A DNA stretch of 64,000 nucleotides from Armatimonadota bacterium. Its GTDB lineage: Bacteria > Armatimonadota > SYMT01. Each line of letters begins with the position of its first letter. The stretch's first letter is position 1. The position numbers and the translations under genes were made by a program. Under the pieces are notes generated by a model. That model was not told the origin of the DNA. It saw only the letters and a list, made by a program, of their open reading frames with translations, and did not search any database. This document shows, piece by piece, positions 32,580 through 47,484 of this stretch. Location: NCBI GenBank assembly GCA_041690135.1, contig JAWLHY010000001.1:768001-832000 (forward strand), written 5' to 3'.

Positions 32580-33809
32580 CTATTCCTCGGCTTTGGCGGA
32601 CCGGAGATCGTCGGGCAGCAGGTGCCCCATCTTGTCCCGCTTCGTCTCGAGGTAGCGTTGATTGACTTCGTTGACCCCGCCCCGCAGGGGCACGGTCTCC
32701 ACAATGGAGAGGCTGAAACCCTCCAGGCCGCCCCGCTTGCGCGGGTTGTTGGTCATCAGGCGCATCTTGCGGACCCCCAGGTCGTGGAGGATCTGCGCGC
32801 CGATACCGTAGTCCCGCATATCCGGCGGGAAACCGAGCTGGCGGTTCGCCTCGACCGTATCATAGCCTTCGTCTTGCAGAGCATAAGCCCGGATCTTGTT
32901 CGTGAGACCGATCCCCCGGCCCTCCTGCCCCTGCAGGTAAAGCAGGACGCCGCGGCCTTCCCGCTGAATGCGCTGCATCGCCAGGGATAGTTGCGTGCCG
33001 CAATCGCACCGGAGGGAATGGAGGATGTCGCCGGTAACGCAGCCGCTGTGCACTCGCACCAGGATCGGCTCCTCGGGGTCGATCTCTCCCAGCACCAGCG
33101 CGAGGTAGGGCGCCTTGTCGATGGTGGTCTCGTAAGCGTGGGCGGTGAACTCCCCGTGCTCGGTGGGGAGACGGCAGGTGGCCTCCCGGCGTACGTGCTT
33201 CTCCGACTTGAGGCGATGGGCAATCAGGTCCGCAATGGTCAGAATCCGCATGCCGTGAGTCGCGGCGAACCGGATCAGGGCTTCACCGCGCGCCATCTCG
33301 CCGTCTTCGGCCTTGATCTCGCAAATGACGCCCGCAGGCTCGAACCCGGCCAATCGGGCGAGGTCGACCGCCGCTTCGGTGTGACCGGCTCGCACGAGTA
33401 CGCCTCCCTCGCGAGCGCGCAGCGGACGTACGTGTCCGGGGCGCAGCAGGTCCTGGCTGCGCGTGCGCGGGTCGAGAAGGACGCGGATGGTATGCGCCTG
33501 TTCCTTGGCGGAGATGCCGGTGGTGGTGCCCTGGCGCGCATCTACGGTCACGGTGAACGCGGTCTGCAGGCGCGCCGTGCTCTCATTGACCATCAGCGGC
33601 AGGTCGAGTTGATCGAGACGGTGCCCTTCCAGGGGCACGCAGATCCACCCGCGCGCGTGCGTCTCCATGAAATTGACGGCCTCGGGAGTGATGCACTCCG
33701 CCGCCATGATCACGTCGCCTTCGTTTTCGCGGTCTTCACTGTCGACCACGATGACCATCTTGCCGGCGCGGATATCGGCAATGGCATCTTCCACACTGCA
33801 GAAAGACAT
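32580..33809 (-). CDS. ribBA: Bifunctional DHBP synthase / GTP cyclohydrolase II
   Basis: EDRENEGD, TGISA, RPGH, RAGHTEA, VRVHSGCVTGD...RCDC, EGRGIGL and TNNP. Confidence 0.97.
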   Translation of the reverse strand: MSFCSVEDAIADIRAGKMVIVVDSEDRENEGDVIMAAECITPEAVNFMETHARGWICVPLEGHRLDQLDLPLMVNESTARLQTAFTVTVDARQGTTTGISAKEQAHTIRVLLDPRTRSQDLLRPGHVRPLRAREGGVLVRAGHTEAAVDLARLAGFEPAGVICEIKAEDGEMARGEALIRFAATHGMRILTIADLIAHRLKSEKHVRREATCRLPTEHGEFTAHAYETTIDKAPYLALVLGEIDPEEPILVRVHSGCVTGDILHSLRCDCGTQLSLAMQRIQREGRGVLLYLQGQEGRGIGLTNKIRAYALQDEGYDTVEANRQLGFPPDMRDYGIGAQILHDLGVRKMRLMTNNPRKRGGLEGFSLSIVETVPLRGGVNEVNQRYLETKRDKMGHLLPDDLRSAKAEE

Positions 33810-33968
33810 GGCTCAACCTTCCCCGGAGTGGCCCGCACCGGCATGCATGCCAACGTAAGTGCAATGGTGAACGGGCTCCTGTCCCCTTCTTTCTACGCAG
33901 GAAGGGACAGCGACGGTCTCCAAACGGTCCCGGAATGCCTTAGTGTATGCGCTGGACCCGGATTCTGG

Positions 33969-35636
33969 CTACCACCACCACGCCTGAAGAGTTTCTCGCG
34001 CGATTTGCTGTGCCGGAAGTGCCGTGTCCACGACTGTGAAGTCCGCATTCGGCGAAGGCGGTTCGTCGGGAAGCGGGTGCTCGCGGAGTTGGGTGTCGTA
34101 AACCGCGATCCCGGCATCGGAAGTAGCGTGCCCTGTCTGCGCCCGAGTGACGAGCCGCTCGCGGATCACCGCATCCGGACACTGGCAAACGATCATGCGA
34201 AGCCGTGCCCCACCTTTGGCAGCCAACTCGGCTGTGACCTCACGTTCCTTCGGGTCCAGGAACGTGGCGTCCAGGATCACCGAGTGCCCCAGCTTCAGGA
34301 GATGCGCCGCTCGGCTTCGCATCTCGCAGTAGACCGCCGCACGTTGGGCGGTGGTGTAGTGGCCGGGCTCCAGACGCCCGGTCGCCGGCACCTCCGCCAG
34401 CTCCTTTCGGAGCGTGTCGGACGAAAGCAGCACGGCGGGCATGCGACGGCACAACTCGCGGGCGAGGGCCGATTTGCCAGAGCCGGAATAGCCGACGACG
34501 ATCCACAACTCGGGAACCTTCCGGACAACCGTGTACGACCGGGCCAGGTCGAGGGCTGCACGGGCCAGATCGGCATGCAAGGTTCTCTCGTCAGGGTCGA
34601 TCTCCCCCTCCTGGGAAGCCAGGTAAGCGATCTTCCCCCGCACACAGGCGCGGTAGCAGAGGTAGAAAGGAAGGACCGCTTCCAGTTCGACGTCTTCGCT
34701 GACGTGCTGATATTCACGGACCAGGGTCGCGCGCAGATCGGTCCGGCCCGCGAGATCGAAGTCCATCGCCAGGTAGGCCAGATCGGCGGCAACGTCCTCG
34801 TAGCGAAAGCGATCGTTGAACTCGATGCAGTCGAAGATCTGGATGCCGTCCTGTATGCCTGGGGCCACGCAGATGTTCTGGAGACGCAGGTCGCCATGGC
34901 CATCGCGAATGCGTCCGGTCGCCATGCGTTTCCGAAACAGGGGGTCGCATTCGATCAGGAAGGCCTCGCTCCCGTGGCGGATAGCAGCGAGTTGTGTCTC
35001 CGGGAGCAGAGCGGGAACCGCCTTCTGGAGTACCTCGAAGTTCTCCCGCACGTTCCGGCGCAGCACCTCGGGCGCCCCGAATCCGCGAATGGTATCGTCC
35101 GTTTCCGCCTCCACATGGAAACGGGCAATCACGCGGGCGAGGCGTTCCACCTCCGGGTCCCGGAGATACGGAAGGCGGACCGGCAGCATCCACTCCTCGG
35201 GAAGGCGGCGCATGCGGACCGCCCATTCCACGACCGGACGGGGGTCTCCAGCCTCCCCGAACACCCAGCGCTCCCCCCGCTCCCCCTCCCGAACTACCGG
35301 GATCACTCCCACGTAGACTTCCGGACAGAGCCGGGCATTGAGCTCCACCTCACGGCGACAGTAGAGTTCCCGCTGTTCCAGGGTGCTGTAGTCCAGGAAG
35401 CCGAAGTTGACCGGCTTTTTGATCTTGTAGGCCCACCCCCCCGCCAGGAAGACCACCGAGCCATGCGTCTGGCGCACTTCCACCCGTTCCGTGCCCGGCG
35501 GGTAGCTTGAAGGACGGGAGAGTTCTGCAAGCAGGCGGGCGATTCGGTCACCCGAAATGTGGGATGCAATCCTGGAGCGTGGTGGACGTGACTCGGGCAT
35601 TTCACCGTCAGGGTTCCCGCTTGAACGTTCAGCCAC
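33969..35636 (-). CDS. APH/kinase-like domain fused to an AAA_33-type P-loop domain
   Basis: QTHGS, YKIKKPV, DGHGDLR, FDCIEFN, D...DLAYL.MD, then GYSGSGKS, SSD..RK and ILDATF. The start may be 35600. Confidence 0.85.
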   Translation of the reverse strand: MAERSSGNPDGEMPESRPPRSRIASHISGDRIARLLAELSRPSSYPPGTERVEVRQTHGSVVFLAGGWAYKIKKPVNFGFLDYSTLEQRELYCRREVELNARLCPEVYVGVIPVVREGERGERWVFGEAGDPRPVVEWAVRMRRLPEEWMLPVRLPYLRDPEVERLARVIARFHVEAETDDTIRGFGAPEVLRRNVRENFEVLQKAVPALLPETQLAAIRHGSEAFLIECDPLFRKRMATGRIRDGHGDLRLQNICVAPGIQDGIQIFDCIEFNDRFRYEDVAADLAYLAMDFDLAGRTDLRATLVREYQHVSEDVELEAVLPFYLCYRACVRGKIAYLASQEGEIDPDERTLHADLARAALDLARSYTVVRKVPELWIVVGYSGSGKSALARELCRRMPAVLLSSDTLRKELAEVPATGRLEPGHYTTAQRAAVYCEMRSRAAHLLKLGHSVILDATFLDPKEREVTAELAAKGGARLRMIVCQCPDAVIRERLVTRAQTGHATSDAGIAVYDTQLREHPLPDEPPSPNADFTVVDTALPAQQIARETLQAWWW

Positions 35637-35687: not shown

Positions 35688-35730
35688 AAACGCAGAGGGG
35701 GCAGCCCAGTGGGCCGCCCCCTCTGCGTTT
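35688..35730 (-). terminator. Terminator closing the FHA-ParA-Hsp70 cluster
   Basis: 20-bp stem AAACGCAGAGGGGGCAGCCC/GGGCCGCCCCCTCTGCGTTT (one imperfect pair); ends in TTTCTTC on the minus strand. Confidence 0.75.
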
Positions 35731-35790
35731 GGCTGGTCGGTGATTCATGGAGCTGCGCACCCGCTAAGCAGCACTTGCCGGATGCACTCC

Positions 35791-36651
35791 CTAGCCAGCG
35801 GGATTTGCCTCTCCCTGTGCCCCGCTCGATAGGTCCGCATCGGAACCGGTCGCCGGGATAACGGAAAGCGCCGCGAACACCTCCTGGTCGGCCATGGTCA
35901 GGGCCGGTTTGGCATGCTCCGGCGGGGTCTCGCTCACCATTCCCGTTTCGGCGGTTGGCAGGTCATCCGTGGACCCCACTCCCGACTTCGCGGCGGAAGC
36001 TTCCGGCACTGCCGCGGCGACGGCTGTCTCAGCTTTTGGTCCCGCAACTTCAACCGAGCCCGGTGAAGTCAGAGAACTGATAGGCGCCGAGGTCGCCATC
36101 CGTTCCCGCGGCGCCTCCAGGGGTAGGTCCAATTGCTCGACCGACTCGACCAACTCCGCCTCGCCGCGAATCACCACCTTCTCATACATCCGCCAGCAAG
36201 GAACGCGAATCCGGAGCAGGTCTCCCGGTTGGCAGCGGCCGATGATCGAATACGCCTCGTCCATTTCCGGGTCGTAGCGCTGCACTGCACCGCAGTAGGT
36301 GTCCGGGGTCAGGTGGATGCGATGCTCCAACTCATAGCGCCACACGTTCAGGATTTGCCGGCAATGGTCCGCCGTGGGAGGTTCTTTCCCGGGCGTCGTG
36401 GCATAGAGGAGCAGCCGGAGGGATGCTTCCAGCCGGTTCACGATGGACAGCACCGCTTCCTCACGGATCTGGGCTTTTACCTGCTCGGGAACATCCGCTA
36501 CGGCGCTTGCCCCCTGGTTCCAGGTATCCGCGAAGAGCGAATCTGGCGGTAGCTGGTAGTTCATGGCATCCTCCGGCCGTGGCAGCAGGGAGTGAAACAG
36601 ACGCTCCCACCATCCACGGGGTTCTTCAGCAACGGTTTGGACCTGGCTCAT
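35791..36651 (-). CDS. Hypothetical protein with a GrpE-like beta domain
   Basis: Segment CGAVQRYDPEMDEAY....CQPGDLLRIRVPCWRMYEKVVIRGEAELV resembles the GrpE C-terminal signature; lies directly downstream of an Hsp70 gene. Confidence 0.6.
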   Translation of the reverse strand: MSQVQTVAEEPRGWWERLFHSLLPRPEDAMNYQLPPDSLFADTWNQGASAVADVPEQVKAQIREEAVLSIVNRLEASLRLLLYATTPGKEPPTADHCRQILNVWRYELEHRIHLTPDTYCGAVQRYDPEMDEAYSIIGRCQPGDLLRIRVPCWRMYEKVVIRGEAELVESVEQLDLPLEAPRERMATSAPISSLTSPGSVEVAGPKAETAVAAAVPEASAAKSGVGSTDDLPTAETGMVSETPPEHAKPALTMADQEVFAALSVIPATGSDADLSSGAQGEANPAG

Positions 36652-36747
36652 CCTCGGTCTCCCTAGGGTCAGCCTCTAAATTCTTCCTTAGCACCGGCCA
36701 CGCTTGTAGATCGGATTGCACATCGGGCATCCAATCCCGTTCCGCGT

Positions 36748-38400
36748 CTAGGCTGCGGCCGTGTTCAACTTCATTTTCTGGCGCTGGACCTCCATGGCCT
36801 TGCCACGGAGGTAGCGCGTCACCAGGAGTTCGGCGGTAATCAGTTCGTGTTCATCCACCTGGCATGCCACCAGCACTTCGAACTGGTCGGGCGCCACGTT
36901 TCGAGCCCACGGGAGGGCCAGGGAGATCCGTTTCGTCAGCTTTTCCCACATCCCGCGCTCAAAGGAGGCAACCCGTTCCACCAGAGGCGAACGGCGCTGC
37001 CCGCTGAAGAACCGGATATGCACGTTGGCCGCGTTGGCATCCAGCCCCAACTGTTCCACTCGGATACGCAGCGGCGTGCGGGTTTGAAACGGGAGCTGCT
37101 GGCCGCGCGGCACCAGGAGCACCGGTTCCTCCCAGGCGCCGTTGTTGGCGGTGACGCCTCCCAGCATCCCGTTGGGGACGGCCACCCACACGGCGTGAGC
37201 GGCCCGGCGCACCGGAGCCAGTACGCCGCCGGCATTCGAGCGCACGAGCGGGACGTACGAGAGGCCGCGGGCCACACTCTGCTCCGGCTGCCGGTGGCGC
37301 CGAACCGTTCCGTTCTCCAGGGAGAGGTGCGGAAATACTTCCTTCAGCGCCCGGTCGACGAAGTACCAGCGAGAGTGACCACCGGTAAGGATCAGGTGCG
37401 TAATCTGGCGGGGGGCGAGGTTCCCCTCTTCCAGAGCGCCCCGCATCAACACGACAAACTGGTTGATGTACTCCGCGGCAAACATCTCGAACTCACCGCG
37501 GGTCAGGCGCACCCGGCGGGTTTCGTCATCCACCAACCAGAGCGACTCGTGCTCGTCCGCGCCCTCGCGGAGGCGGTTGGAGAACTCCTCTTTGAAACGG
37601 CGCACGTCCCGCAGCAGGGGTTGGCGATTGCGCTTTACGAACTGGGGATCCCAGTCGCGGGTCACGTAATCCAGCATCAACTGGTCGAGATCCCGCCCCC
37701 CGTAGGAGCGCCGGCCGTTGCCCCATGCCGGCACGGAGCCGGCGGGGTCCACGGGAATTGAGACCGGCCGCTGGTCCGGCGACATGGCGAGCTGGAGGAA
37801 TGCGAAGTCGGTAGTGCCCCCGCCCATGTCGATCATCAGGATCCGGCTGCCCGGCTTGGGGTGGAAGCCATCCCGGTCGTCGCACAGGTGGCTGTAGAGC
37901 GCCGCCATCGACTCTTCCTCGAGCCGCACGTTGGGGAAACCCGCTTCCATCGCCGCGCGCCGAGTTTCCTCACGCTGGTCGGCACTCCACTGGACGGGGT
38001 GCCCGACGATGGTTTCGAAGGCGACGTTCCCGTCTTTCTTGTCGAGCGGCACAACTTCCGCGGTGCGCTGCCGAAGGTGGGCCAGGAACTGCCGGGCCAG
38101 GAGGAAGGCTTCGCGACCATTCTCCGCGTGACCCAGTCGCAGCTTGAAGCCGCTGCGGGTGTACTCCGGATAAAAGGGCGCCTTCTCCTCGGCCAGTTCG
38201 CCGAACTGCGGCAACTGCTCGCCGCCGTCCCCGAGAAACACCACGGTGGGAAGCGTGGAGCGGTGGCTGAACGTGATGGCTTCGGGGCGCTGGATTGGGT
38301 CGGGGTCTACGTCACCGTTGCCACGGTCGTAGTAAGTGGCATAGGTGACGCAGCTATTGCTCGTCCCAAAATCGATTCCGATAACGTAAACCGTCTTCAT
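36748..38400 (-). CDS. Atypical Hsp70 family protein
   Basis: GIDFGTSNS, P..W...QR...AA..AG, EESMAA, IDMGGGTTD, GGRDLD, LTGGHSR and PEQSVARG; divergent C-terminus. A longer in-frame start exists at 38463. Confidence 0.88.
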   Translation of the reverse strand: MKTVYVIGIDFGTSNSCVTYATYYDRGNGDVDPDPIQRPEAITFSHRSTLPTVVFLGDGGEQLPQFGELAEEKAPFYPEYTRSGFKLRLGHAENGREAFLLARQFLAHLRQRTAEVVPLDKKDGNVAFETIVGHPVQWSADQREETRRAAMEAGFPNVRLEEESMAALYSHLCDDRDGFHPKPGSRILMIDMGGGTTDFAFLQLAMSPDQRPVSIPVDPAGSVPAWGNGRRSYGGRDLDQLMLDYVTRDWDPQFVKRNRQPLLRDVRRFKEEFSNRLREGADEHESLWLVDDETRRVRLTRGEFEMFAAEYINQFVVLMRGALEEGNLAPRQITHLILTGGHSRWYFVDRALKEVFPHLSLENGTVRRHRQPEQSVARGLSYVPLVRSNAGGVLAPVRRAAHAVWVAVPNGMLGGVTANNGAWEEPVLLVPRGQQLPFQTRTPLRIRVEQLGLDANAANVHIRFFSGQRRSPLVERVASFERGMWEKLTKRISLALPWARNVAPDQFEVLVACQVDEHELITAELLVTRYLRGKAMEVQRQKMKLNTAAA

Positions 38401-38518
38401 GGATGACACATCTAACTGCAAGCTCTCGCCCGGTCTGCCCGGCGAGCTGATGTGGCGTGGCACGTTCGATAGGCCCGTGACACGTTATCGGCAGGGGTTC
38501 ATCGATTCTGGATACCAA

Positions 38519-39376
38519 TCATGCGGTCTGGGCCGCATTGATCAGGACCTGGGTCAATTGCCGGTAGGCCCAGGCGACCGGGGAGTCCGGGCGATAGAGG
38601 ACAATGGGGCGGTCCAACAGCAACCCTTCCCCCACCGTGGCGTCGCGAGGAATCGAAACCGGGAACAACGCCTGGCCCAGGCTGCGGCGGATGTGGGCTT
38701 CCAACTGTGCCTGGCGGGGATCCTGCTCCTCCACCATCGTCAGCAGCAGTCCCAGAAGACGCGCGGTGGCGCCGTCGGCCCGGGCATCCCGGAGTTGGCC
38801 CAGAATGCCGCCCAACGTGCGATAGGCCAGGGGGTGGCACTGGAAGACGACGACCACCTCATCGACCACCTGGCACAGCCGGCGCGTCATGTCCGCCACC
38901 GAGGGCCGCGTGTCCACGATGATGTACTCATAGTGGCCCGGTACTCGCTTGCCTAGCTCCGACAGCGCCCGGTGCAAGGCGTTGAGATCCACGGGCCGCC
39001 GGTCCTCCGCATACGGTAGGAGATCGAGGTTCGTCGCCACCTCGGGAATCACGAGATCGGACAGGTCCCACTGTTCGATGCCGAAAAGGCCCGGGTGTCC
39101 GGGGGCCACGGACGTGCCGAAACAGGCGGCCACGCTGCCGATCGGGTCCGTGTCCACGATCAACACGCGGTTTCCGGACTGGCCGAGACAGGCCGCCACG
39201 TTCACCGCCGACGCCGTTTTCCCGACGCCACCCTTCTGGCTCGCGAACATGATCCGCCGGACCGCGGCGCGCCGCGCCTCGTCGTGCAGTTCCGCAACAC
39301 CGGATTCCGCGCTTGCCCCGCCCCCTGGGCTGGCAGCGGTAGACCGGGCGCCACCAAACGGGTTGCTTTCCATCAT
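38519..39376 (-). CDS. ParA/Soj family ATPase
   Basis: Deviant Walker A SQKGGVGKT, VDTDP, YIIVDTRP and a Soj-like end PIVLYRPDS..AYRQL. Confidence 0.9.
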   Translation of the reverse strand: MMESNPFGGARSTAASPGGGASAESGVAELHDEARRAAVRRIMFASQKGGVGKTASAVNVAACLGQSGNRVLIVDTDPIGSVAACFGTSVAPGHPGLFGIEQWDLSDLVIPEVATNLDLLPYAEDRRPVDLNALHRALSELGKRVPGHYEYIIVDTRPSVADMTRRLCQVVDEVVVVFQCHPLAYRTLGGILGQLRDARADGATARLLGLLLTMVEEQDPRQAQLEAHIRRSLGQALFPVSIPRDATVGEGLLLDRPIVLYRPDSPVAWAYRQLTQVLINAAQTA

Positions 39377-39444
39377 TTCTTGCTTTGACCTGTTGCGGGG
39401 AACGGCCAGGAGCCGTCCCGGGACTTAGATTTCCTGGGGCTCAT

Positions 39445-40422
39445 CTATCGGTGCGCCGCGCTTCCGGATTTGGCGGCGATCACGCGGCTCTTACCATTCT
39501 TGGCCGGGCCGTCCGAAGCTCGGCCCCCGCGCCCTGCCGTCATCCAGTAGCCGATGCCGGCGGCCAACAACACCAGAACGGCAATGGCGGCTACCGCCCA
39601 GTTGAGTTTGAAACCACCGGACTGGGGCATCGGCATCTGCTGCGAGCCGGCCTGGACCGGCGCTGCCGGCACGGAAGCCCCCATCGGCTGCGCCCGGCGA
39701 GCGGGCGGCGCCCACGCGGACGCCCCCGCGGAATTGCCGCCGTACATTCCATCGAGCTGGAGCCCACGGACCACGGCATCGCCCGCCGCCTGGTAGGCGG
39801 CTCGGCTCTGCTCGGAGGGTTCGGTGCGGCGCTCGACTTTCTGTTCCGCGCGGTGGGCCAGCCCCGAGTCTGTGGGGATCGGCGGGTTGAGTAGTCCATC
39901 CGGCCGGCGCGAGCGGAGTTCCAGCATCAACGTCCGCTGGGTGGGGTCCTGCTCGTCGAACATGGTGGGAAGCACGCCGATCAAGTGGATCTGCGGGCTG
40001 AGATCCCGCACGTTATCCAGCGCTGCTTCCGCTCCGTCCAGTGTCTTCAGGCTGACCGGCTCCACCGGAATCACCATCAACACCGCCGTCGAAAGCTGAA
40101 TCCATCCCCGGGCGAGCGGGTCATCCAGAGAGGGGGTGTCGACCACAGCCACGTCGAACAACCCTTCCAGTTCCTTGACCTTGGAAGGAAGTTCCCGCAG
40201 CGGGAGGACGCTGCTGCAGAGGTATCGCAAGCGCGGGTTCCGGGTCTGCTGGACGGAGCCGGTAGTCTCCTCGAGGCCGAGAATGAGACTCGCGCCCCGC
40301 TGGCGGTCCGCATCCACCAGGACCACGCGGACACCGCGCCGGGCCAGGTCTTCCGCGAGCATGACCGCGGAAGTCGTCTTTCCGGCCCCGCCTTTGTGAC
40401 TGATAATGGCAAGCGTTTTCAT
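39445..40422 (-). CDS. ParA family ATPase with C-terminal TM helix
   Basis: SHKGGAGKT, VDADRQ, VVDTP, GVLPTMFD; then a Pro/Ala linker, TM WAVAAIAVLVLLAAGIGYWM and a basic tail. Confidence 0.88.
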   Translation of the reverse strand: MKTLAIISHKGGAGKTTSAVMLAEDLARRGVRVVLVDADRQRGASLILGLEETTGSVQQTRNPRLRYLCSSVLPLRELPSKVKELEGLFDVAVVDTPSLDDPLARGWIQLSTAVLMVIPVEPVSLKTLDGAEAALDNVRDLSPQIHLIGVLPTMFDEQDPTQRTLMLELRSRRPDGLLNPPIPTDSGLAHRAEQKVERRTEPSEQSRAAYQAAGDAVVRGLQLDGMYGGNSAGASAWAPPARRAQPMGASVPAAPVQAGSQQMPMPQSGGFKLNWAVAAIAVLVLLAAGIGYWMTAGRGGRASDGPAKNGKSRVIAAKSGSAAHR

Positions 40423-40437
40423 GTGCAGCTCAAGTCT

Positions 40438-41196
40438 CTACCGGGGTGCCGTGCAGAGGGGATCGGCCGGCTCGTCCGGCTCCTCGGGATTTGGTTGTCC
40501 CAGCGCGTCCTGGAGCATTTCACCCAGTACAACATCCTCGGCTGTCAGGTGGTGGCTCCCCGGCGCTTCCAGGACCCGAATAATACTCGTCTGACCCATC
40601 TGGATCCGGTCGCCGTTCCGCAGCACGACCTCTTCTCCTGGCGTCAGGACGCGGCCGTTGAAGCGGGTGCCGGTTTCGCTCTGGAGATCCCGCAGTACGA
40701 ACCTCCCGCCCACTTTACCGATCCAGGCGTGGGCGGCGGCAACACCGGGGTCCATGAACAGGTCGATCTCGGGATGGATTCCCCGAGAAAAATCACGGCG
40801 CCCCACCAGGGCCTCATCCCGCACCAGCCAGGGGAACTTCCGGCGGGCCGAGCTGACCTCGATCTTCAGGTTGTGAATGCGGTGCGTAGCCTGAGCGTCG
40901 GCCTCATCGACCTCAATGGGTCGATCGGCATGCTGCTCGATGACGTTCAACACCTCTTGTTCAGATGGTGCCGTCCAGGCGCTAGATTCCTCCCTCGCCA
41001 GGGGGCGATCGGCAAGATTCGTAGTTTTCGGCTCCTGGGCGGTTTCCTCGCTGGCGTGGACGTTCGCCATCTCGTCTACGTCGAAATCGGGCCGGGCCCG
41101 CAGGTAGGCCCATTCATCCTCGGCGGCCGGGGAAGTGGGCGCCTGCGCGCCTTGCTTCTCCGCGTCATCACTTTTGCCGAACAGCCAGCGAAGCAT
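40438..41196 (-). CDS. FHA domain protein with degenerate pThr motif
   Basis: LVGRRD..PEIDL..DPGVAAAHA..LRDLQSETGTRFNG..LRNGDRIQMG. Confidence 0.85.
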   Translation of the reverse strand: MLRWLFGKSDDAEKQGAQAPTSPAAEDEWAYLRARPDFDVDEMANVHASEETAQEPKTTNLADRPLAREESSAWTAPSEQEVLNVIEQHADRPIEVDEADAQATHRIHNLKIEVSSARRKFPWLVRDEALVGRRDFSRGIHPEIDLFMDPGVAAAHAWIGKVGGRFVLRDLQSETGTRFNGRVLTPGEEVVLRNGDRIQMGQTSIIRVLEAPGSHHLTAEDVVLGEMLQDALGQPNPEEPDEPADPLCTAPR

Positions 41197-41318
41197 TCAG
41201 GGATCCATCTCCCAGGCGACCGCTCCGACCCATGGACGATCACCAATCGATAGTAGTTATTCTGGCGCCCTGGCCTCCAGGCTGTAGGTGCCCGATAGAG
41301 AATGGCACCCTCAGGCAC

Positions 41319-42176
41319 CTAGAGGATGCCGTCCTCGCGCCCCAGGTCCAACGCCAGGTCCAGCACGTCTTTTCCGCTTCCGTCGGCCAGGAGAGGCGGA
41401 GCCGGCGCACGGGGATCCATCCGCGTGGTGACGAACGAGCCGCCGAACAGTTCATCCAGGCTTTCCGCGATGACCCGTTCTTCCTTCTCATTCTGGGAAG
41501 GCTGACGGACTACCCCCACCGGCACCACGTGGATGACCGACACATCTCCCAGTTGAATCACGTCTCCAGCACGCAGCTCCACCGTCTCACCGGAGGCGAG
41601 CCACCGCCCATTGTGGAGCGTCCCGTTCGTACTGCCGAGGTCCTGCAGGTGATACACCCCCGCCTTCAACCAGATCCGCGCATGGCGCCGCGATACGGCA
41701 TCATCCTGGCTGAGGTCCACTTCCGGATGACAGCCGCTCTCCAGATCCAGGCGACCAATGAGAAGCGCCTCGTCCACGGTACGCAGCATGCGCCGGACCC
41801 CCGAACGAACGTCGAGCGCGAGGGGCTGACGAACCGGTGCCGGAGGACCCAGGTTGGCCTCGCCCGGCTGCCCCGATGCATCCTCATGAGGCGCGTCCAA
41901 CAGTTCGTTGAGGAATTGCGGCTGGAGTTCTTCAAGGTCGCGCGAGAGGCGGGCCTCCAGTTCGGGGTCCGGTAAGAGCGCTCCGTCGCCTAGGGAGGCC
42001 TCTCCGGCACGATTCCCTACGGTACTCCGGGAATGAACGGCGGCCATCTCTTCCGAATCGAAGTCCGGGCGGGCCCGCAGGTAGGCCCAATCGTCGTCGC
42101 CTTCCGGACGCGGCGCGGCAGGGGGTGCCGAGCTTTCTTCCGGATCTGCTTTTTTCAGAAATCCCCAACGGAGCAT
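41319..42176 (-). CDS. FHA domain protein with canonical motif
   Basis: LIGR..PEVDL..DDAVSRRHA..LQDLGSTNGTLHNG..LRAGDVIQLG. Confidence 0.9.
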   Translation of the reverse strand: MLRWGFLKKADPEESSAPPAAPRPEGDDDWAYLRARPDFDSEEMAAVHSRSTVGNRAGEASLGDGALLPDPELEARLSRDLEELQPQFLNELLDAPHEDASGQPGEANLGPPAPVRQPLALDVRSGVRRMLRTVDEALLIGRLDLESGCHPEVDLSQDDAVSRRHARIWLKAGVYHLQDLGSTNGTLHNGRWLASGETVELRAGDVIQLGDVSVIHVVPVGVVRQPSQNEKEERVIAESLDELFGGSFVTTRMDPRAPAPPLLADGSGKDVLDLALDLGREDGIL

Positions 42177-42530
42177 GACAGTCCATTCCGTCGCGGTCGG
42201 CGCGATGAGGGAGGATCGGGGCGGACAGAAGGAATACAGCTACAATTGTGGCACGTCGGGCATCGCTCTGGAGAGGCCTCGCGCGTCTCCGGCCGTTCCC
42301 GTCCCCGCCAGCCTGGACGATCCCCGTATGATCGGCATTCCAGGTACTACCGCAGGTAAGCGACAAAGCCTATCCTCGGACGCTAGCCCAGCTTCTCCTC
42401 CGGCAAGGACCCTAGCCGATACTCCGGCTAATACTCCGGAAGGATGATAGCAGACTAACTGGGAGAACGGAAGTGAGTCGATCCGCAGGCTCCTCGCTCC
42501 CCTGTCAAGTAACAGAGATCTAACACAACG

Positions 42531-43727
42531 ATGCATCCCTTGAAACGTCTTCTTTCGGTCGCGCTGCCGGCGGCCGTCCTCGCCGTTACTCTTGCCGCGC
42601 CTCCCGCGGGCGCTGAACCGAATACCTTGCAGCCCAAGCAGGTGGGTGACGGATGGATCCTCCTGTTCGACGGCAAGACACAGTTCGGCTGGGCGCCGCG
42701 GGGCGACGCCCGCTGGACTGTCGCCAACGGCAACCTGGTCCCCCTCCCCGGCACGGGGGCCGGCGTCCTCAGCACGACCACCGAGTTCGCCGACTACGAT
42801 CTGAAGGCGGACGTGTGGGTGGACAGCACCGCCAATAGCGGCATCTTCCTGCGCAGCCCCGGCACCGGCCCCATCAACCAGAACAACGCCTACGAAGTCA
42901 ACGTCTTCGATCCGCACCCGCAGTGGCCGTCCGGCAGCATCAACGACGTAGCCCGCGCGGCCGAACGGGTCAAAACGGTGGGCCGTTGGAACACCTACGA
43001 GATCACCGCGGACGGGCCGCGCCTGTTGGTCCGCGTGAACGGCCATACCGTGGTGAACACGACCGACGGCCGCTACGCCCGGGGTACGATCGGACTGCAG
43101 ACCAACGGGCAGGGCGACATTCGGTTCCGGAACGTGATGCTGAAGCCGCGCCGCACCAAGAGCCTGTTCAATGGTAAGGACCTGACCGGTTGGAAGGTGC
43201 TGCCGGACCGCAAATCGGTCTACTCGGTCACCCCCGAGGGTTATCTGAACGTGAAGAACGGGAACGGCGATATCCAGACCACGGGGGAGTTCGGGGACTT
43301 CGTCTTCCAACTCGATATCATCTCCAACGGCACCCACCTGAACAGCGGCGTGTTCTTCCGCGCCGAACCCGGCCAGTTCTGGAGCGGCTACGAAAGCCAG
43401 ATCCGGAACCAGTGGCTGGGGGATGACCGCACCAAGCCGGTCGATTACGGTACCGGCGGGGTTTACAACCGCCAGCCGGCACGCTTCGTCGTGCCCAGCG
43501 ATCGGCAGTGGTTCACCAAGACCATCGTCGCGCACGGGCCGCATATCGCGGTGTGGGTCAACGGCATCCAGGTGAGCGACTTTACCGACACCCGCCCGCC
43601 GCATGCCAGTGCCCGGCAGGGTTACCGCAGCAAGCCCGGCGTCATCAGCCTGCAGGGCCACGACCCGACGACGGACCTTTCGTTCCGCAACCTGCGCATT
43701 TCGGAGATGCCCGCACCGCGGAAGTAG
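42531..43727 (+). CDS. Secreted tandem DUF1080 (3-keto-disaccharide hydrolase-like) protein
   Basis: Signal peptide and two copies of the pattern LF(D/N)GK...GW, NSG(I/V)F.R, YE, G.I.LQ, .FRN. Confidence 0.9.
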   Translation: MHPLKRLLSVALPAAVLAVTLAAPPAGAEPNTLQPKQVGDGWILLFDGKTQFGWAPRGDARWTVANGNLVPLPGTGAGVLSTTTEFADYDLKADVWVDSTANSGIFLRSPGTGPINQNNAYEVNVFDPHPQWPSGSINDVARAAERVKTVGRWNTYEITADGPRLLVRVNGHTVVNTTDGRYARGTIGLQTNGQGDIRFRNVMLKPRRTKSLFNGKDLTGWKVLPDRKSVYSVTPEGYLNVKNGNGDIQTTGEFGDFVFQLDIISNGTHLNSGVFFRAEPGQFWSGYESQIRNQWLGDDRTKPVDYGTGGVYNRQPARFVVPSDRQWFTKTIVAHGPHIAVWVNGIQVSDFTDTRPPHASARQGYRSKPGVISLQGHDPTTDLSFRNLRISEMPAPRK

Positions 43728-43819: not shown

Positions 43820-45547
43820 TTACTTCTTCTTGGGCGCCGGCTTCTTGACTGCCGGCTTCTTGACTGCCGGCTTGCGGGCGACGGGCTTCTTGGCCGGCGC
43901 CTTGGTGGCCGTGGGCTTCTTTACCGGCGCCTTGGGGTTGGTGGAGGGGGTCTTGGGCTGGGTGGAATCGCCACCGGCCGCGGCCGGCTCGGGATCGCGG
44001 TTCCAGGTGAGCGGCGGGAGTTGCGTCTCCTCCCCGGCTTCGACGATCACTTCCACCTCGTTGTTTTGCCAGTGCCCGATTCCGGTCAGCCGAAGATCCT
44101 GGCGCGGCTGGAAGTTCCGGAGCACCCGGTAAGTCCCCGGGCGCACGTTCGGCAGCACCACCTTGCCGGTCGGATCGACCGGAAGATCGATCCAACGCAT
44201 TCCGGCGGTTTCGGCTCCGGATTTGGGAACGAGACCCAAAGCGAGGGCGCCTTCGGGCGGAGCTTCACCATTGATCTTGATGGCCGAGATGAGCGTCCCC
44301 CCTCCCGGCGCGTAGAAGGCCCGGGGGGCGTTAGCGCTGTTCCGGCCGGGAAGCAGCACGTTCCGGCGCGGGATGAAGGCGCCTTCCGGCGGAAGCGGCA
44401 CGTCCTTCATCCGGAACGAGAAGGCGCGGCTGGCCTCTCCGTACTCCGAAACGTTGAGCCGGACCGAGCGGATGGGTTCCTTTACGGGGGCATACTGGGC
44501 CGTGATGTCGTAGGCCAGACCTCCCCCCACCTGACGAGTGCTCTTCTGATGGGTCGTGGGCGTGTGGAAGCCGCCCGCGGCGTCCACCAGCAGCGGCATG
44601 GGGAAGGCCTCCATCCCCTGTACCCGGATCGCTGAGTGCAGGGGAACTTGCACCCGGAAGGTCACGCTGGGCTGTGCGGCGTTATCGGCGGCGGGAACCG
44701 TGACCTTCTGCACTTCCACCACCATTCCGCCCGCCTCCTTCTTCGCGTTCTCCGGCGTCACCGGGAGCGCCACTTCAAAAGGATGGGTGCGCGCGGATTT
44801 ATAGGTGAGCAGATCTCCCTCGATCCAGACGAGCCGGGTCGCCTTCGGATGAACGCCGGACAGGCTTAGCGAGCAGGCCCATTCATCCGGCAGTAGCGTG
44901 CCGGCGAGCGTGGTGCTCGAGGAACTCACCAGGGCGCGCTCGCCGGTGAGGAGGTTGCCCTGGTCGTCCATGGCCACCACATTCTCGATCCCGGCAATCC
45001 GGTCGCTGTCCAGCTCACCCAGGTCGGCCTGGAGTTCCAGGGTCAGCGTCTGGTCGTCCTGGGAGATAGGTCCCCCCGCGAAATCAAGCGCTCGGGTGTT
45101 GCGCACGGAAACACGGCGAACAAAAAGCGAGATCCCCGCGTTCTCCACCAGGCCCACTTTCCTGGCAGGGGAAGCGGAAAGGGCCGACCCGGAGGGGAAG
45201 AGGAGGAACCGCCCCCACTGGCGCGACACCTGGAGCCGGTAGCGGGACTTCAAATCGCGGAGCGCTGTTGCGAGCGTAACGCCGCTCCATTTGAAACTGG
45301 ACTTTTCTTCCAGTATCCGGAGACTGGAGGGGAGCGCGACACCGGCAGGGCGGCGGGGCATCTGGATCTCCACCGGTACCCCCGAAGCTTTCGACAGCTG
45401 GGCGATCGCCTCCTCGGCCGTGGCATTCTGTACGTTCAGCGTTAGCTTGGGGTTGTCGGCCGGCGCAGGCGCCTGGATAACCACCCCCGCCACCAACATC
45501 CATCCCAGCGTCGACCGCTTCAGGTAATTTCGCACACACACCTCCAT
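43820..45547 (-). CDS. Secreted protein with STN-like N-terminus, carboxypeptidase-regulatory-like domain and KKPA-repeat tail
   Basis: Signal peptide then ADNPKLTLNVQNA..EAI..LSKASG; VRPGTYRV; tail KAPVKKPTATKAPAKKPVARKPAVKKPAVKKPAPKKK. Confidence 0.7.
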   Translation of the reverse strand: MEVCVRNYLKRSTLGWMLVAGVVIQAPAPADNPKLTLNVQNATAEEAIAQLSKASGVPVEIQMPRRPAGVALPSSLRILEEKSSFKWSGVTLATALRDLKSRYRLQVSRQWGRFLLFPSGSALSASPARKVGLVENAGISLFVRRVSVRNTRALDFAGGPISQDDQTLTLELQADLGELDSDRIAGIENVVAMDDQGNLLTGERALVSSSSTTLAGTLLPDEWACSLSLSGVHPKATRLVWIEGDLLTYKSARTHPFEVALPVTPENAKKEAGGMVVEVQKVTVPAADNAAQPSVTFRVQVPLHSAIRVQGMEAFPMPLLVDAAGGFHTPTTHQKSTRQVGGGLAYDITAQYAPVKEPIRSVRLNVSEYGEASRAFSFRMKDVPLPPEGAFIPRRNVLLPGRNSANAPRAFYAPGGGTLISAIKINGEAPPEGALALGLVPKSGAETAGMRWIDLPVDPTGKVVLPNVRPGTYRVLRNFQPRQDLRLTGIGHWQNNEVEVIVEAGEETQLPPLTWNRDPEPAAAGGDSTQPKTPSTNPKAPVKKPTATKAPAKKPVARKPAVKKPAVKKPAPKKK

Positions 45548-45583: not shown

Positions 45584-47209
45584 TTACTTCTTTCGAGCGG
45601 GAGCCGGCTTCGACCCGGTCCCGCCCGCCGCCGGGGCGGGGCCGGCGCTCCAGCGGAGCACCGGCAGTGCCTGTTCCTTGCCGGCGACCACCTGCACTCG
45701 CACTTCGTAGCCCTGCCAGTGCCCCCCCGGACGGACAGGCGTGTCGCCCCGGTACTTGCGCAACACCCGGTAAGTACCGGGACGAATCTCCTCAAGACGC
45801 ACCTTTCCGTCCGGCCCGATCATCGCTTCGGTCCAGCGCACGGGCCCCCATCCCGTGGCGGTGCGGGCGGCGAGGCCGAGCTGGACGACACCCTGGGGGA
45901 TCGGCTTGTCCGCCACGGCCACGCTCCCCACCAGGGTGCCGCCGCCCTTCTGGTAGAAGGGATGCTCCGCCTCCGGCGGGGCCGCGGGACGCGGTGCGGG
46001 GGCGGGACCTCCCGCGCGCGGGACCACGAGGCTCGCCTCCGGCAGAGGGATATCGGACATCCGGAAGGAGAACAACTTCACCGGCTCCGACTTCTCCACG
46101 ATCTCCCACACCAGCTTCACCGGCTTCTCCGCCATGCCGGGAAAGATCCAGGTGGTATCGCTCACTTGCCATTGCCCATCGCTGGATGAACCGCCGCCGC
46201 GGAAAGTGGAGCCCGGGTAGGACTTGCCGGACTCTCCCACCGCAATAGGTGGCAGCCCCCAACCGCCGGCACGGGAACTGAAGCGGGCGCCCACCGGGCT
46301 GAACACGCGGATGCGGACACTGGGACCGAAGTCCTGAGCCTGGTGAGCGAAGCGCGGTCCGGGTAGATCCGCCTCGTCCCCTTCTTCCTCTGCTTTAGGA
46401 ATCACCTGGAAGCGAGAGGCCACGATCAACATGGGGCCTACTTCCCGGCGAAAGCTCTTGCCCGGCAGGGGAAGGGGGATTTCGGCCCGGTGCTGCTTCA
46501 CGTGCTTGTAGACCATCAGGTCGCCTTCCACCGATACCAGCTTCCTGGCTTTCGAGTGCGGGGAACCGAGATGCAACCCGCCGACCCACTCATCCGGAAA
46601 CTGGTTGGAGTATCCCCCGTAATAGCCGCCGTTTTGATTGGGAGCCTGCAGCACATTTCCCTGGTCGTCGCGCGCCAGCACGTTGTCGAGCCCGGCCACG
46701 GTGTCTCCGTCGCCGTTGGGAATCTCCGCCGCCACCTGGAGATTCAGGCTGCTGTTGCTGTAGCTGGCCCCCGGACCCGCGAAGTTGACGTGACGGTTCT
46801 CGTTGACGCTGACTGAGCGCACGCTGAGCTGCACGCCGCTCTTCTGGACGACCCCCACCGGCTTGCCCGCCGGCGCCCCGCCGGTGAGATAGAGCATGTA
46901 CCGGCCACCGTTGCGGTTGGGCTGGAGATTGAAGCGCGCACAGAGATCCCGCAGGGCGCGGCCGAGGGTGGCATTCGACCAATCGAAGGTCACACGCTCG
47001 GAGGCGAGGTGACCGGCCGAGAGATCGAGGGGAATGCCCGAGGCCTCGCCCAGTTTCTTCAAAGCCTCGCTCAGGGGGGCGTCCTGGATCTTCAGGGCGA
47101 TCTTCGGGTTATCCGCGCGAGCCGGGCCGGAACCGGCTGCAAAAAGGGCCGCGGAAAGTATCGCCCCGGAGGCCAGCGGATAAGGAATACGGGAAGCGGA
47201 GCGGGTCAT
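45584..47209 (-). CDS. Secreted protein paralogous to 43820-45547
   Basis: Shares ADNPK, DDQGN.L, PDEW, EGDL..YK, FSFRM.D.PLP, FY..GGGTL, RPGTYRVLR and GHWQ motifs. Confidence 0.75.
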   Translation of the reverse strand: MTRSASRIPYPLASGAILSAALFAAGSGPARADNPKIALKIQDAPLSEALKKLGEASGIPLDLSAGHLASERVTFDWSNATLGRALRDLCARFNLQPNRNGGRYMLYLTGGAPAGKPVGVVQKSGVQLSVRSVSVNENRHVNFAGPGASYSNSSLNLQVAAEIPNGDGDTVAGLDNVLARDDQGNVLQAPNQNGGYYGGYSNQFPDEWVGGLHLGSPHSKARKLVSVEGDLMVYKHVKQHRAEIPLPLPGKSFRREVGPMLIVASRFQVIPKAEEEGDEADLPGPRFAHQAQDFGPSVRIRVFSPVGARFSSRAGGWGLPPIAVGESGKSYPGSTFRGGGSSSDGQWQVSDTTWIFPGMAEKPVKLVWEIVEKSEPVKLFSFRMSDIPLPEASLVVPRAGGPAPAPRPAAPPEAEHPFYQKGGGTLVGSVAVADKPIPQGVVQLGLAARTATGWGPVRWTEAMIGPDGKVRLEEIRPGTYRVLRKYRGDTPVRPGGHWQGYEVRVQVVAGKEQALPVLRWSAGPAPAAGGTGSKPAPARKK

Positions 47210-47484
47210 TACGGATCTCCCAAGCCCGCCGGAGCGAGGCATCGCCTCGGCACATGGGGACGTGCGGCCCGGAGAGACGGAACTCCGGGGGGCTCGACGA
47301 CGGTTCGTGCGGAGGACACCACTGGTTGGACGCAGGTGGCTTAAGCTATGTTACCGGGAAGCAGCGGCCAACGCAGTAAGCGGCCGGCCTCGTTCACACC
47401 TGCAGGATACACTGTACCGGGTCCATTGGGCAACGAAGCCGCCCCGGCGCGACCGGCTCACCCTGGAGATTCTCGGGAGAAAAG

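Follow-up and report, generated by a model that had tools for sequence, protein, structure and literature searches.

Bacteria generally rely on ATPases of the ParA/MinD type to place chromosomes, septa, and large complexes. To our knowledge, the cycle of these enzymes is closed by one small activating partner in every case that has been studied, and we know of no description of a chaperone built into a ParA cycle. The activating partners ParB, MinE, and PomX share a conserved positively charged N-terminal peptide (PMC7993993). Here, we analyze a 64,000-nucleotide stretch of the genome of a soil-type Armatimonadota bacterium (contig JAWLHY010000001.1, positions 768,001 to 832,000), referred to below as the window, and describe a putative operon at positions 35688-42176 that encodes two ParA-type ATPases together with two FHA-domain proteins, a divergent Hsp70, and a protein with a GrpE-like predicted fold. 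Our preferred reading, to which we assign a probability of roughly 40%, is that the operon is the lineage's own vertically inherited spatial organizer of the ParA/MinD type, served by an FHA-bearing adaptor and by an Hsp70 cycle of its own.

The locus resembles ParABS, MinCDE, and PomXYZ in that both of its ParAs have a deviant Walker A motif, one of them is membrane-bound, like MinD, and its fast-evolving adaptor has a conserved positively charged N-terminal peptide. It differs from these systems in having two different ParAs in tandem, a partner with an FHA domain, and a co-encoded Hsp70 and GrpE-fold protein; no ParB, MinC/E, or PomX/Y homolog was recognized at the operon (minC and minE were not searched for genome-wide). 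Unlike MinD, the first ParA attaches by a true C-terminal transmembrane helix and not by an amphipathic helix, and neither ParA falls into the Soj clade of the phylum or scores over the MinD cut-off. The second pair of genes invites comparison with DnaK and GrpE. The Hsp70-like protein retains the fold, the catalytic-type residues, and the beta substrate-binding domain, and the predicted fold of its neighbor best matches GrpE; however, the Hsp70-like protein is lidless and scores far below DnaK and HscA cut-offs, its neighbor has no sequence similarity to GrpE, and no J-protein gene is found nearby. The parts belong to known superfamilies, while their combination is new as far as the literature was searched. 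No description combining a ParA pair, an FHA adaptor, an Hsp70, and a GrpE-fold protein was found, in agreement with the initial annotation of this DNA; the search included the accessible text of Kaur et al. 2020 (PMC7159879) and of the 2026 preprint by Li, Burroughs, and Aravind, with the supplementary tables of both outside its scope.

The six genes of the operon all lie on the minus strand. In the order of transcription, they encode FHA1 (adaptor 1; 41319-42176, 285 amino acids (aa)), FHA2 (adaptor 2; 40438-41196, 252 aa), ParA1-TM (hereafter also ParA1; 39445-40422, 325 aa), ParA2 (38519-39376, 285 aa), the Hsp70-like ATPase Hsp70L (36748-38463, 571 aa as an open reading frame (ORF)), and the GrpE-fold protein GrpEL (35791-36651, 286 aa), which was assigned by its predicted fold and has no family match. 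The intergenic gaps, calculated from ORF coordinates, are 122, 15, 68, 55, and 96 bp. Judging by conservation, the true start of Hsp70L is probably Met 21 (coordinate 38403), which would give a protein of 550 aa and extend the fourth gap to 118 bp. Sixty nucleotides past the last stop codon, there is a terminator-like hairpin (35688-35730, minus strand) with a 20-bp stem and a weak T-tail. Its predicted energy is −43.3 kcal/mol (z = −6.9), and none of 200 shuffled sequences was as stable. A consensus terminator scanner, which reported 8 terminator-like sites, all weak, against 4.6 ± 2.0 expected, overlooked this hairpin because of its tail rule. No strong hairpins were seen between the operon genes. 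On the upstream side, a 354-bp divergent intergenic region (42177-42530 by ORF positions), presumably containing the promoter, separates the operon from a plus-strand gene (42531-43727) whose product matches the 3-keto-disaccharide hydrolase family of Pfam with 243 bits. A scan for σ70-like promoters returned no sites against 1.0 expected, a result that is uninformative for Armatimonadota. The architecture proposed by the initial annotation therefore holds: six co-oriented genes with short gaps (15-122 bp), a terminator (borne out by the energy of the hairpin), and a divergent gene at the upstream border. The annotated gene content, i.e., two FHA paralogs, two ParAs, one with a transmembrane segment, and an atypical Hsp70, is likewise upheld by Pfam scores, pairwise identities, and hydropathy, and no ParB, DnaJ, or Pkinase was recognized among the 43 window ORFs scanned (12 + 31). 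The G+C content of the window is 65%, and its base composition is unremarkable.

Both ParAs score over the Pfam cut-offs (ParA1, CbiA 62.8 and AAA_31 57 bits; ParA2, AAA_31 82.2 and CbiA 59.5 bits) and contain the K-G-G-x-x-K-[ST] signature of the deviant-Walker-A class with both lysines present (S-H-K-G-G-A-G-K-T in ParA1 and S-Q-K-G-G-V-G-K-T in ParA2), as well as the aspartates of Walker A' and Walker B. The two are distant paralogs, with 28.8% identity over 219 aa. ParA1 has two internal deletions compared to Soj; it also has a low-complexity linker, and it ends in a single transmembrane helix and a basic tail of 31 residues. The best 19-residue hydropathy window of ParA1, at a distance of 31 residues from the C-terminus, has an average of 2.25; the corresponding maxima are 2.25-3.21 in six ParA1 orthologs and do not exceed 1.49 in any of six ParA2 sequences. 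A hydrophobic helix with a short basic tail behind it is a feature of all six ParA1 orthologs and of none of the ParA2 sequences. In the ParA1 orthologs, 9-48 residues follow the helix. ParA2 is a soluble, Soj-like protein with a non-conserved N-terminal extension of about 38 residues, and among solved structures, Thermus Soj (1wcv, E = 3.9e-31) is its best relative.

A maximum-likelihood tree of 37 ParA sequences (no rows were dropped; one row contains an X at an internal stop) resolved three well-supported groups, the Soj clade of the phylum (24 rows), ParA2 (stem length 1.64), and ParA1-TM (stem length 3.02). Both operon ParAs have Ser in place of the Asn that precedes the Walker A lysine in the Soj clade, and the N-Q-K-G-G, D-P-Q-G-N, P-P-S, and E-A-P-S blocks of Soj, with conservation of at least 90% in that clade, are altered in both. 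The tree and these motifs set back canonical Soj orthology of ParA2, and neither ParA adjoins parB. A MinD identity was rejected for both proteins (37.9 and 31.6 bits against the TIGR01968 cut-off of 212.9); moreover, the helix of ParA1 is transmembrane and not amphipathic. Assignments to TagH/FHA of the type VI secretion system, TadZ/CpaE/Ssd, BcsQ, VirC1, plasmid RepA/SopA, and tyrosine autokinases were also considered and discarded, the scores being far below curated cut-offs.

The products of the first two genes match the Pfam FHA family (PF00498) with 58.0 bits (FHA1) and 42.1 bits (FHA2), at a cut-off of 20.7, and are 38.5% identical over 213-218 aa. From its N- to its C-terminus, FHA1 has a basic/aromatic peptide, the acidic block D-W-A-Y-L-R..R-P-D-F-D, the FHA domain, and a final L-D-L-A-L..G..G-L motif. 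Related loci contain a single first gene, of which FHA1 is the ortholog, with an identity of 35-37%. FHA2 keeps the N-terminal blocks and is without the C-terminal motif, and its FHA domain has Ser-to-Ala and Asn-to-Thr changes. Since only one such gene is present in three related loci (L014, L018, and L063), FHA2 is, by sequence comparison, a lineage-specific duplicate. The operon core thus comprises five genes, coding for the adaptor, the tail-anchored ParA1, the soluble ParA2, the lidless Hsp70, and the GrpE-fold protein, with the adaptor gene duplicated here. Four short blocks are common to the adaptors (the basic/aromatic N-terminus, the acidic block, a block after the FHA domain, and the C-terminal L-D-L-A-L..G..G-L), and two of them persist even in a copy without an FHA domain. 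The N-terminus, M-x-R/W-W-x-F-x-K/R-K, is kept in all six sequences, the FHA-less one included. An alignment of FHA1 with the three orthologs that have the domain revealed that G-R, S-R-R-H, and T-N-G are kept in all of them. The adaptor is the fast-evolving partner in the set: its identity of 35-37% compares with 52-79% for the other operon proteins. Its gene is also variable in number, with one copy in three loci and two in the genome of the window.

The match of Hsp70L to HSP70 (PF00012), limited to residues 149-378, scores 61.5 bits (cut-off 20.6). An AlphaFold2 model based on 30 homologs has a predicted local distance difference test score (pLDDT) of 88 and a predicted template-modeling score of 0.85. 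In Foldseek searches, the model aligned with full-length DnaK and BiP in the ATP state over about 590 columns (E = 6.3e-28, template-modeling (TM) score 0.63-0.66). It comprises a nucleotide-binding domain, followed by a beta substrate-binding domain at residues ~395-545; there is no helical lid, the beta domain of the model being followed by only a single short helix (484-495). Positions D-F-G-T, F-K, E, and D-M-G-G-G-T-T-D, which we take to be equivalent to D8, K70, E171, D194, and T199 of DnaK, are invariant in the alignment of 30 Hsp70L sequences. Orthology to DnaK, HscA, or HscC was rejected, because the scores (54-64 bits) are far below the NCBIfam cut-offs of 620-1019 (64.2 against 708 for HscA and 59.2 against 648 for DnaK). 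Two canonical DnaK genes and a canonical GrpE gene are present elsewhere in the same genome.

Specialized Hsp70 paralogs that do not serve the heat-shock response reportedly include SglK and StkA of Myxococcus xanthus. A gene for a GrpE-like protein, grpS, reportedly adjoins sglK. Like Hsp70L, SglK is an extra Hsp70 paralog; it functions in motility, exopolysaccharide production, and development and not in folding at large (PMC8265645). It differs in being a near-canonical DnaK that complements E. coli dnaK, while Hsp70L is far more divergent, and no linkage to ParA or FHA genes is reported for SglK in the accessible text of that source (PMC8265645).

Further Hsp70L-like genes were found outside the operon. 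A paralog that is 55% identical to Hsp70L is encoded in the genome of the window (G000, C3:936039-937649, corresponding to L013:9052-10671) without ParA or GrpE-fold neighbors, with an FHA gene and a Pkinase-WD40 gene within 6 kb. In the related genome G005 (L017), the 8 kb next to the paralog contain an FHA-kinase-vWA trio and a metallophosphatase gene, with mutL in between. A general linkage of the paralog to FHA and Ser/Thr kinase genes was considered and rejected as insufficiently conserved, since it was seen at two of the four loci (L013 and L017) and not at L015 or L019; the paralog has no such neighbors in G001 or G002. The genome G016, which belongs to the one other family with Hsp70-like genes of this type, has two of them in tandem after a GrpE-fold gene at L020:8565-12474.

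GrpEL had no family matches in Pfam or NCBIfam (both at E ≤ 0.01), PADLOC, or PHROGs. Its 78 homologs are all unnamed and without Pfam domains. The conserved domain (residues ~30-170) consists of two long helices and a small beta domain, and the tail is disordered. A search of 1.84 billion protein representatives with the GrpEL profile returned 34 proteins, no known GrpE among them; the same profile found no matches among sequences of the PDB, and the GrpEL alignment compared by hhalign with 20 canonical GrpE sequences of the phylum gave a probability of 0.3% (E = 0.2). The structural model, with pLDDT of 87-96 over residues 70-170, has as its best Foldseek match Thermus GrpE (3a6m_A, E = 2.8e-3, probability 1.00, target TM-score 0.43). 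Of the 11 best rows, nine are GrpE, but E ≤ 0.001 is attained by none. GrpE is also the nearest named cluster in the Atlas, at 0.88, below the 0.9 line. On these grounds, we designate the 286-aa protein a predicted GrpE-fold protein and not a member of the GrpE family.

A complex of Hsp70L (residues 1-400) with GrpEL (residues 30-175) was modeled along with three controls, using alignments that we supplied. The pair scored 0.43, against 0.00 for the best of the three controls, and thus reached the mark of the test, lending weak support to an interaction. The mark is reached by 58 of 80 solved complexes and two of 110 mismatched pairs; seven of the 80 solved complexes, and both passing mismatches, reach it with scores of 0.60 or less. 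These calibration counts hold only roughly here, because author-supplied alignments were used. The runs agreed in at least 85% of contacts, with partner pLDDT of at least 77. DnaK-GrpE complexes have already been solved, so the result may reflect likeness to them and not binding. The GrpE-like label of the initial annotation therefore stands, with modest support, as a prediction of fold, and fails in all three tests made at the sequence level.

The conservation of the operon was studied in 301 Armatimonadota genomes. The Hsp70L family (E ≤ 1e-50) is present in eight of them, namely all seven genomes of the window's family and a single genome of one other family. Scanning public genomes by contig with the Hsp70L alignment yielded 38 loci, of which six were close relatives, all from genomes already in the set; a metagenome scan with the GrpEL alignment yielded nine loci, mostly of 1-4 kb. 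Because the public scans returned few loci, mostly short or already known, the neighborhood statistics that follow rest on few long loci. The order ParA1TM-ParA2-Hsp70L-GrpEL is kept in all five related loci with sufficient upstream sequence (L014, L016, L018, L024, and L063), so the check for a conserved neighborhood called for by the initial annotation came out positive. Hsp70L and GrpEL are adjacent in 10/10 orthologous loci, and ParA2 is followed by Hsp70L at a distance of 55-120 bp in all seven loci reaching upstream (the above five, L065, and L068). The divergent hydrolase neighbor is kept in four of the five related loci, while the downstream flank differs in every genome, with the internal order constant. 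Proteins from related loci are 68-78% (Hsp70L), 67-79% (ParA2), 54-69% (ParA1TM), and 52-70% (GrpE-fold domain) identical to those of the window; for comparison, ParB is 54-63% identical among the same genomes, below Hsp70L and ParA2. The operon looks chromosomal, vertically inherited, and confined, as far as searched, to one Armatimonadota family. The same place and order in the family genomes, the strong purifying conservation of the ATPases, the ordinary composition, and the absence of an effector argue for a housekeeping unit and not an island.

The genome of the window is 97% complete, and ParA2 is its best match to AAA_31. ParA2 and ParA1-TM are the only Soj/ParA-type genes in it; the remaining AAA_31 matches correspond to ArsA/Get3, Mrp/NUBPL, and ORFs of more than 800 aa. 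FtsZ is present. No MinD was found at the TIGR01968 cut-off in this genome or in any of the seven genomes of the family (minC and minE were not searched for). A canonical ParB with N, helix-turn-helix, and C domains is encoded on another contig (C12:39078-39899, L125:6076-6873), beside a sulfotransferase gene and without parA. In 20 of 24 genomes from other families, ParB is immediately preceded by the best match to ParA2, whereas none of four further members of the window's family has a ParA within 1.5 kb of ParB (L128-L131). The N-terminal [KR]-G-L-x-x-L-[ILF] motif of ParB is also missing from all five ParBs of the family, which begin directly at the ParB_N domain, and is found in all 13 examined elsewhere (out of 20 ParBs from other families). 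In Thermus, the N-terminal motif of Spo0J activates Soj (PMC7993993). The coupling of Soj to ParB is thus absent in the lineage of the window, and its loss strengthens the positioning role that had been proposed for the operon, a role we regard as plausible.

The family also has a second ParB_N protein of about 400 aa, with a Cys-rich C-terminal part (C2:837623-838834 in the genome of the window; orthologs at L132-L135). It is 74-76% identical across four genomes of the family, above the canonical ParB. A third ParB_N gene is located on C16.

A spatial organizer built from these parts could work as follows. The C-terminal helix of ParA1 would keep this protein, in its ATP-bound form, at the cytoplasmic side of the membrane, with ParA2 as a soluble partner. 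The conserved positively charged N-terminal peptide of the adaptor may stimulate ATP hydrolysis by the ParAs, in the manner of ParB, MinE, and PomX, and the FHA domain, where present, may hold a cargo or regulator marked by phosphothreonine, providing an optional phospho-input. Hsp70L, with the GrpE-fold protein recharging it as an exchange factor, might bind the conserved linear motifs of the adaptor or the tails of the ParAs and disassemble or reset the assemblies. We infer all protein-protein contacts in this scheme, its cargo, and any role in chromosome segregation or division-site choice. A bolder version, in which the family has abandoned the Soj-ParB partnership and its nucleoid and/or division site is organized by the paired membrane-anchored and soluble ParAs, with the FHA adaptor replacing ParB/MinE as activator and link to cargo and a private Hsp70, aided by a GrpE-fold exchange factor, performing ATP-driven disassembly, seems to us doubtful.

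The operon, although limited to a narrow lineage of which we know no cultured model, links a fast-evolving adaptor and a private Hsp70 cycle to a pair of different ParAs, in a setting where the ParA-activating peptide of ParB is gone. Should the parts function together, this would be a case of a chaperone recruited into a positioning cycle, and a natural example of a replaced ParABS partnership. The locus also brings to light two small protein families outside Pfam and NCBIfam, the GrpE-fold partner, with its 34 representatives among 1.84 billion proteins, and the adaptor.

A number of observations weigh against a spatial organizer of this kind. Some of them concern the parts. The adaptor gene of G005 codes for a protein without an FHA domain, and no first gene could be detected in the G002 locus. 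FHA2 has A-A-A-H and E-T-G at the sites of S-R-R-H and T-N-G, and so it is altered at two of the positions that we take to contact phosphothreonine (in the motifs G-R, S-x-x-H, and N-G). The phospho-regulation ascribed to the system by the initial annotation had to be abandoned as a core property, because an FHA domain is absent from the first gene of one genome and could not be detected in a second. In ParA2, residues with at least 90% conservation in the Soj clade of the phylum are changed, including those of the P-R-x-x-x-L-x-E-A-P-S block. This block presumably holds a DNA-binding arginine, and the changes make nucleoid binding by ParA2 doubtful. Kinship of GrpEL to GrpE at the sequence level was rejected by every search made (Pfam, NCBIfam, PDB, hhalign, and the 1.84 billion proteins), and no J-domain gene is present in the operon, which leaves the chaperone cycle incomplete or hypothetical. 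Other observations concern the genomes. Most other families without the operon are without MinD as well (it exceeds the cut-off in only eight of 41 genomes), which makes the argument for replacement loose. G001 and G004 have another Soj-like gene elsewhere, 36-39% identical to canonical Soj. The one genome outside the family, G016, keeps a normal parA-parB operon and MinD; it has four Hsp70L genes, none with an adjacent ParA pair, and GrpEL lies directly upstream at two of three loci. In G004 (L100, contig C510), the gene after a divergent pair resembling ParA1TM and ParA2 (30% and 60% identity) codes for a zinc alcohol dehydrogenase and not for Hsp70L, but an ortholog is indistinguishable from a second copy here, since the assembly consists of 1140 contigs. 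Finally, the 55%-identical paralog of Hsp70L stands alone in all four loci (L013, L015, L017, and L019). The modules are thus separable, and a rigid unit is disfavored.

This separability is what would be expected if the operon were two independent modules adjacent by shared descent, an adaptor-ParA-ParA unit and an older Hsp70L-GrpE-fold pair whose clients are unrelated to the ParAs. The Hsp70L-GrpEL genes of G016, with GrpEL upstream rather than downstream, the solitary paralogs, and the dehydrogenase gene that follows the ParA pair in G004 all fit such an arrangement. It is harder to reconcile with the close spacing of ParA2 and Hsp70L in seven out of seven loci, with a shared strand that has no strong internal hairpin and a very strong one at its end, and with an internal order that stays constant while the downstream flank varies among genomes. 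We regard two modules as a possibility to be taken seriously, if on the whole an unlikely one.

The combination of genes also recalls conflict systems, among which DO-GTPase systems with HSP70 and GrpE and the PCTM system come nearest in architecture; the operon lacks defining features of both. In neighborhoods described by Kaur et al. (2020), HSP70 and GrpE occur in about 14% of GAP1-N2 loci, next to paired paralogous, often membrane-linked nucleoside triphosphatases (NTPases) (PMC7159879, accessible text). The likeness to the operon consists of two paralogous NTPases, often membrane-linked, accompanied by an HSP70 and a nucleotide-exchange factor. According to the same text, however, those NTPases are GTPases of the TRAFAC class (DO-GTPases) with GAP1, FNIII-repeat, and DnaJ-fused partners and variable effectors, whereas the NTPases of the operon are of the ParA type, none of those partners is recognizable, and only the adaptor varies. 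ParAs with a C-terminal transmembrane segment (PCTM), in the accessible part of the preprint by Li, Burroughs, and Aravind (2026), resemble ParA1 in domain order, a ParA domain followed by the transmembrane segment, and in having a linked upstream gene. They differ in three respects as described there: the ConB2 branch has arginine in place of the second Walker A lysine, which both operon ParAs keep; a periplasmic domain is usually present, while the ParA1 orthologs have only 9-48 residues past the helix; and the gene upstream is a SLATT, caspase, or CPPC-4h effector, while here it codes for an FHA protein. Membership in PCTM, suggested by the transmembrane helix, was consequently rejected on the grounds of the retained lysine and of the FHA gene upstream.

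An anti-phage or programmed-death system centered on NTPases, with the ParA pair as the switch and the Hsp70 as a multimerizing or thresholding part, would draw on both of these likenesses and on the expansion of Hsp70L to four copies in G016. Yet there is no effector domain within or adjoining the operon, GAP1, FNIII, and DnaJ partners are all absent, and the second Walker A lysine is kept in both ParAs, unlike in the ConB2 branch with PCTM (accessible part of the preprint). Scanning of anti-phage models in PADLOC-DB 2.0 produced no match for four of the six operon proteins. The ParAs matched, weakly and in the P-loop only (PDC-M28B, 29.5 and 24.4 bits; for ParA1, also PprDinG, 16.6, and mad8, 16.2), and the PHROGs and PADLOC scans together gave generic P-loop, ParA, and Hsp70 matches with no system for the set. 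The location of the operon, beside the same divergent gene in four of five loci, its presence in the family genomes examined, and the conservation of its ATPases, which exceeds that of ParB, likewise speak against conflict, which we consider improbable.

The possibility that ParA2 is a relocated Soj, serving canonical chromosome segregation with the orphan ParB while the other genes are bystanders or modulators, is raised by three results. ParA2 and the canonical Soj of G033, encoded beside ParB, are reciprocal best matches (33% identity, E = 5e-24), Thermus Soj is the best solved relative of ParA2, and no other Soj-like gene was found in G000, G002, G005, or G006. Against this, the motif that activates Soj in Thermus (PMC7993993) is gone from the ParBs of the family and retained in those examined elsewhere. 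In addition, ParA2 is separated from the Soj clade by a long branch (stems of 1.64 and 1.32; support of 100/98 and 98/95), is altered at Soj-invariant positions, and is only 27-33% identical to the Soj proteins of the phylum, while ParB is 40-50% identical between the same genomes. A relocated Soj is therefore, in our judgment, quite improbable.

A dedicated unit for proteostasis or membrane-protein handling (the "aggregate handling" of the initial annotation), in which the Hsp70 and the GrpE-fold protein do the work and ATPases of the ParA type (SIMIBI class) deliver or place the clients, would suit the nucleotide-binding and beta substrate-binding domains that the model of Hsp70L appears to retain in full, the membrane anchor of one ParA, and the weak matches of ParA1 to Get3/ArsA-type models (E = 1.4e-4 to 3e-3), but is very unlikely given that these Get3-type scores are far below cut-offs, that two canonical DnaK genes and a canonical GrpE already exist in the genome, that nothing ties the operon to stress genes or a J-protein, and that aggregate handling has no specific support.

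Several ORFs around the operon deserve mention. Long antisense ORFs of up to 839 aa are found opposite real genes, all on the plus strand (32991-35510, 39985-41253, 41232-41975, and 36847-37761). They have no Pfam match where tested, and the G+C content by codon position is that of a shadow frame in the three for which it was computed (all except 36847-37761). These antisense ORFs are artifacts of high G+C content. Upstream, two adjacent large ORFs on the minus strand (43820-45547 and 45584-47242; 575 and 552 aa) have no significant Pfam family, a sub-threshold STN match being the sole trace, and are not syntenic with the operon in related loci. Downstream, past the terminator, the next gene (33969-35636, minus strand) codes for a fusion of an APH kinase-fold domain with an AAA_33 P-loop kinase domain and has, in addition, a Zeta-toxin-like match. 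Its homolog in G005, which is 50% identical, is divergently oriented and adjoins the FHA-kinase-vWA trio.

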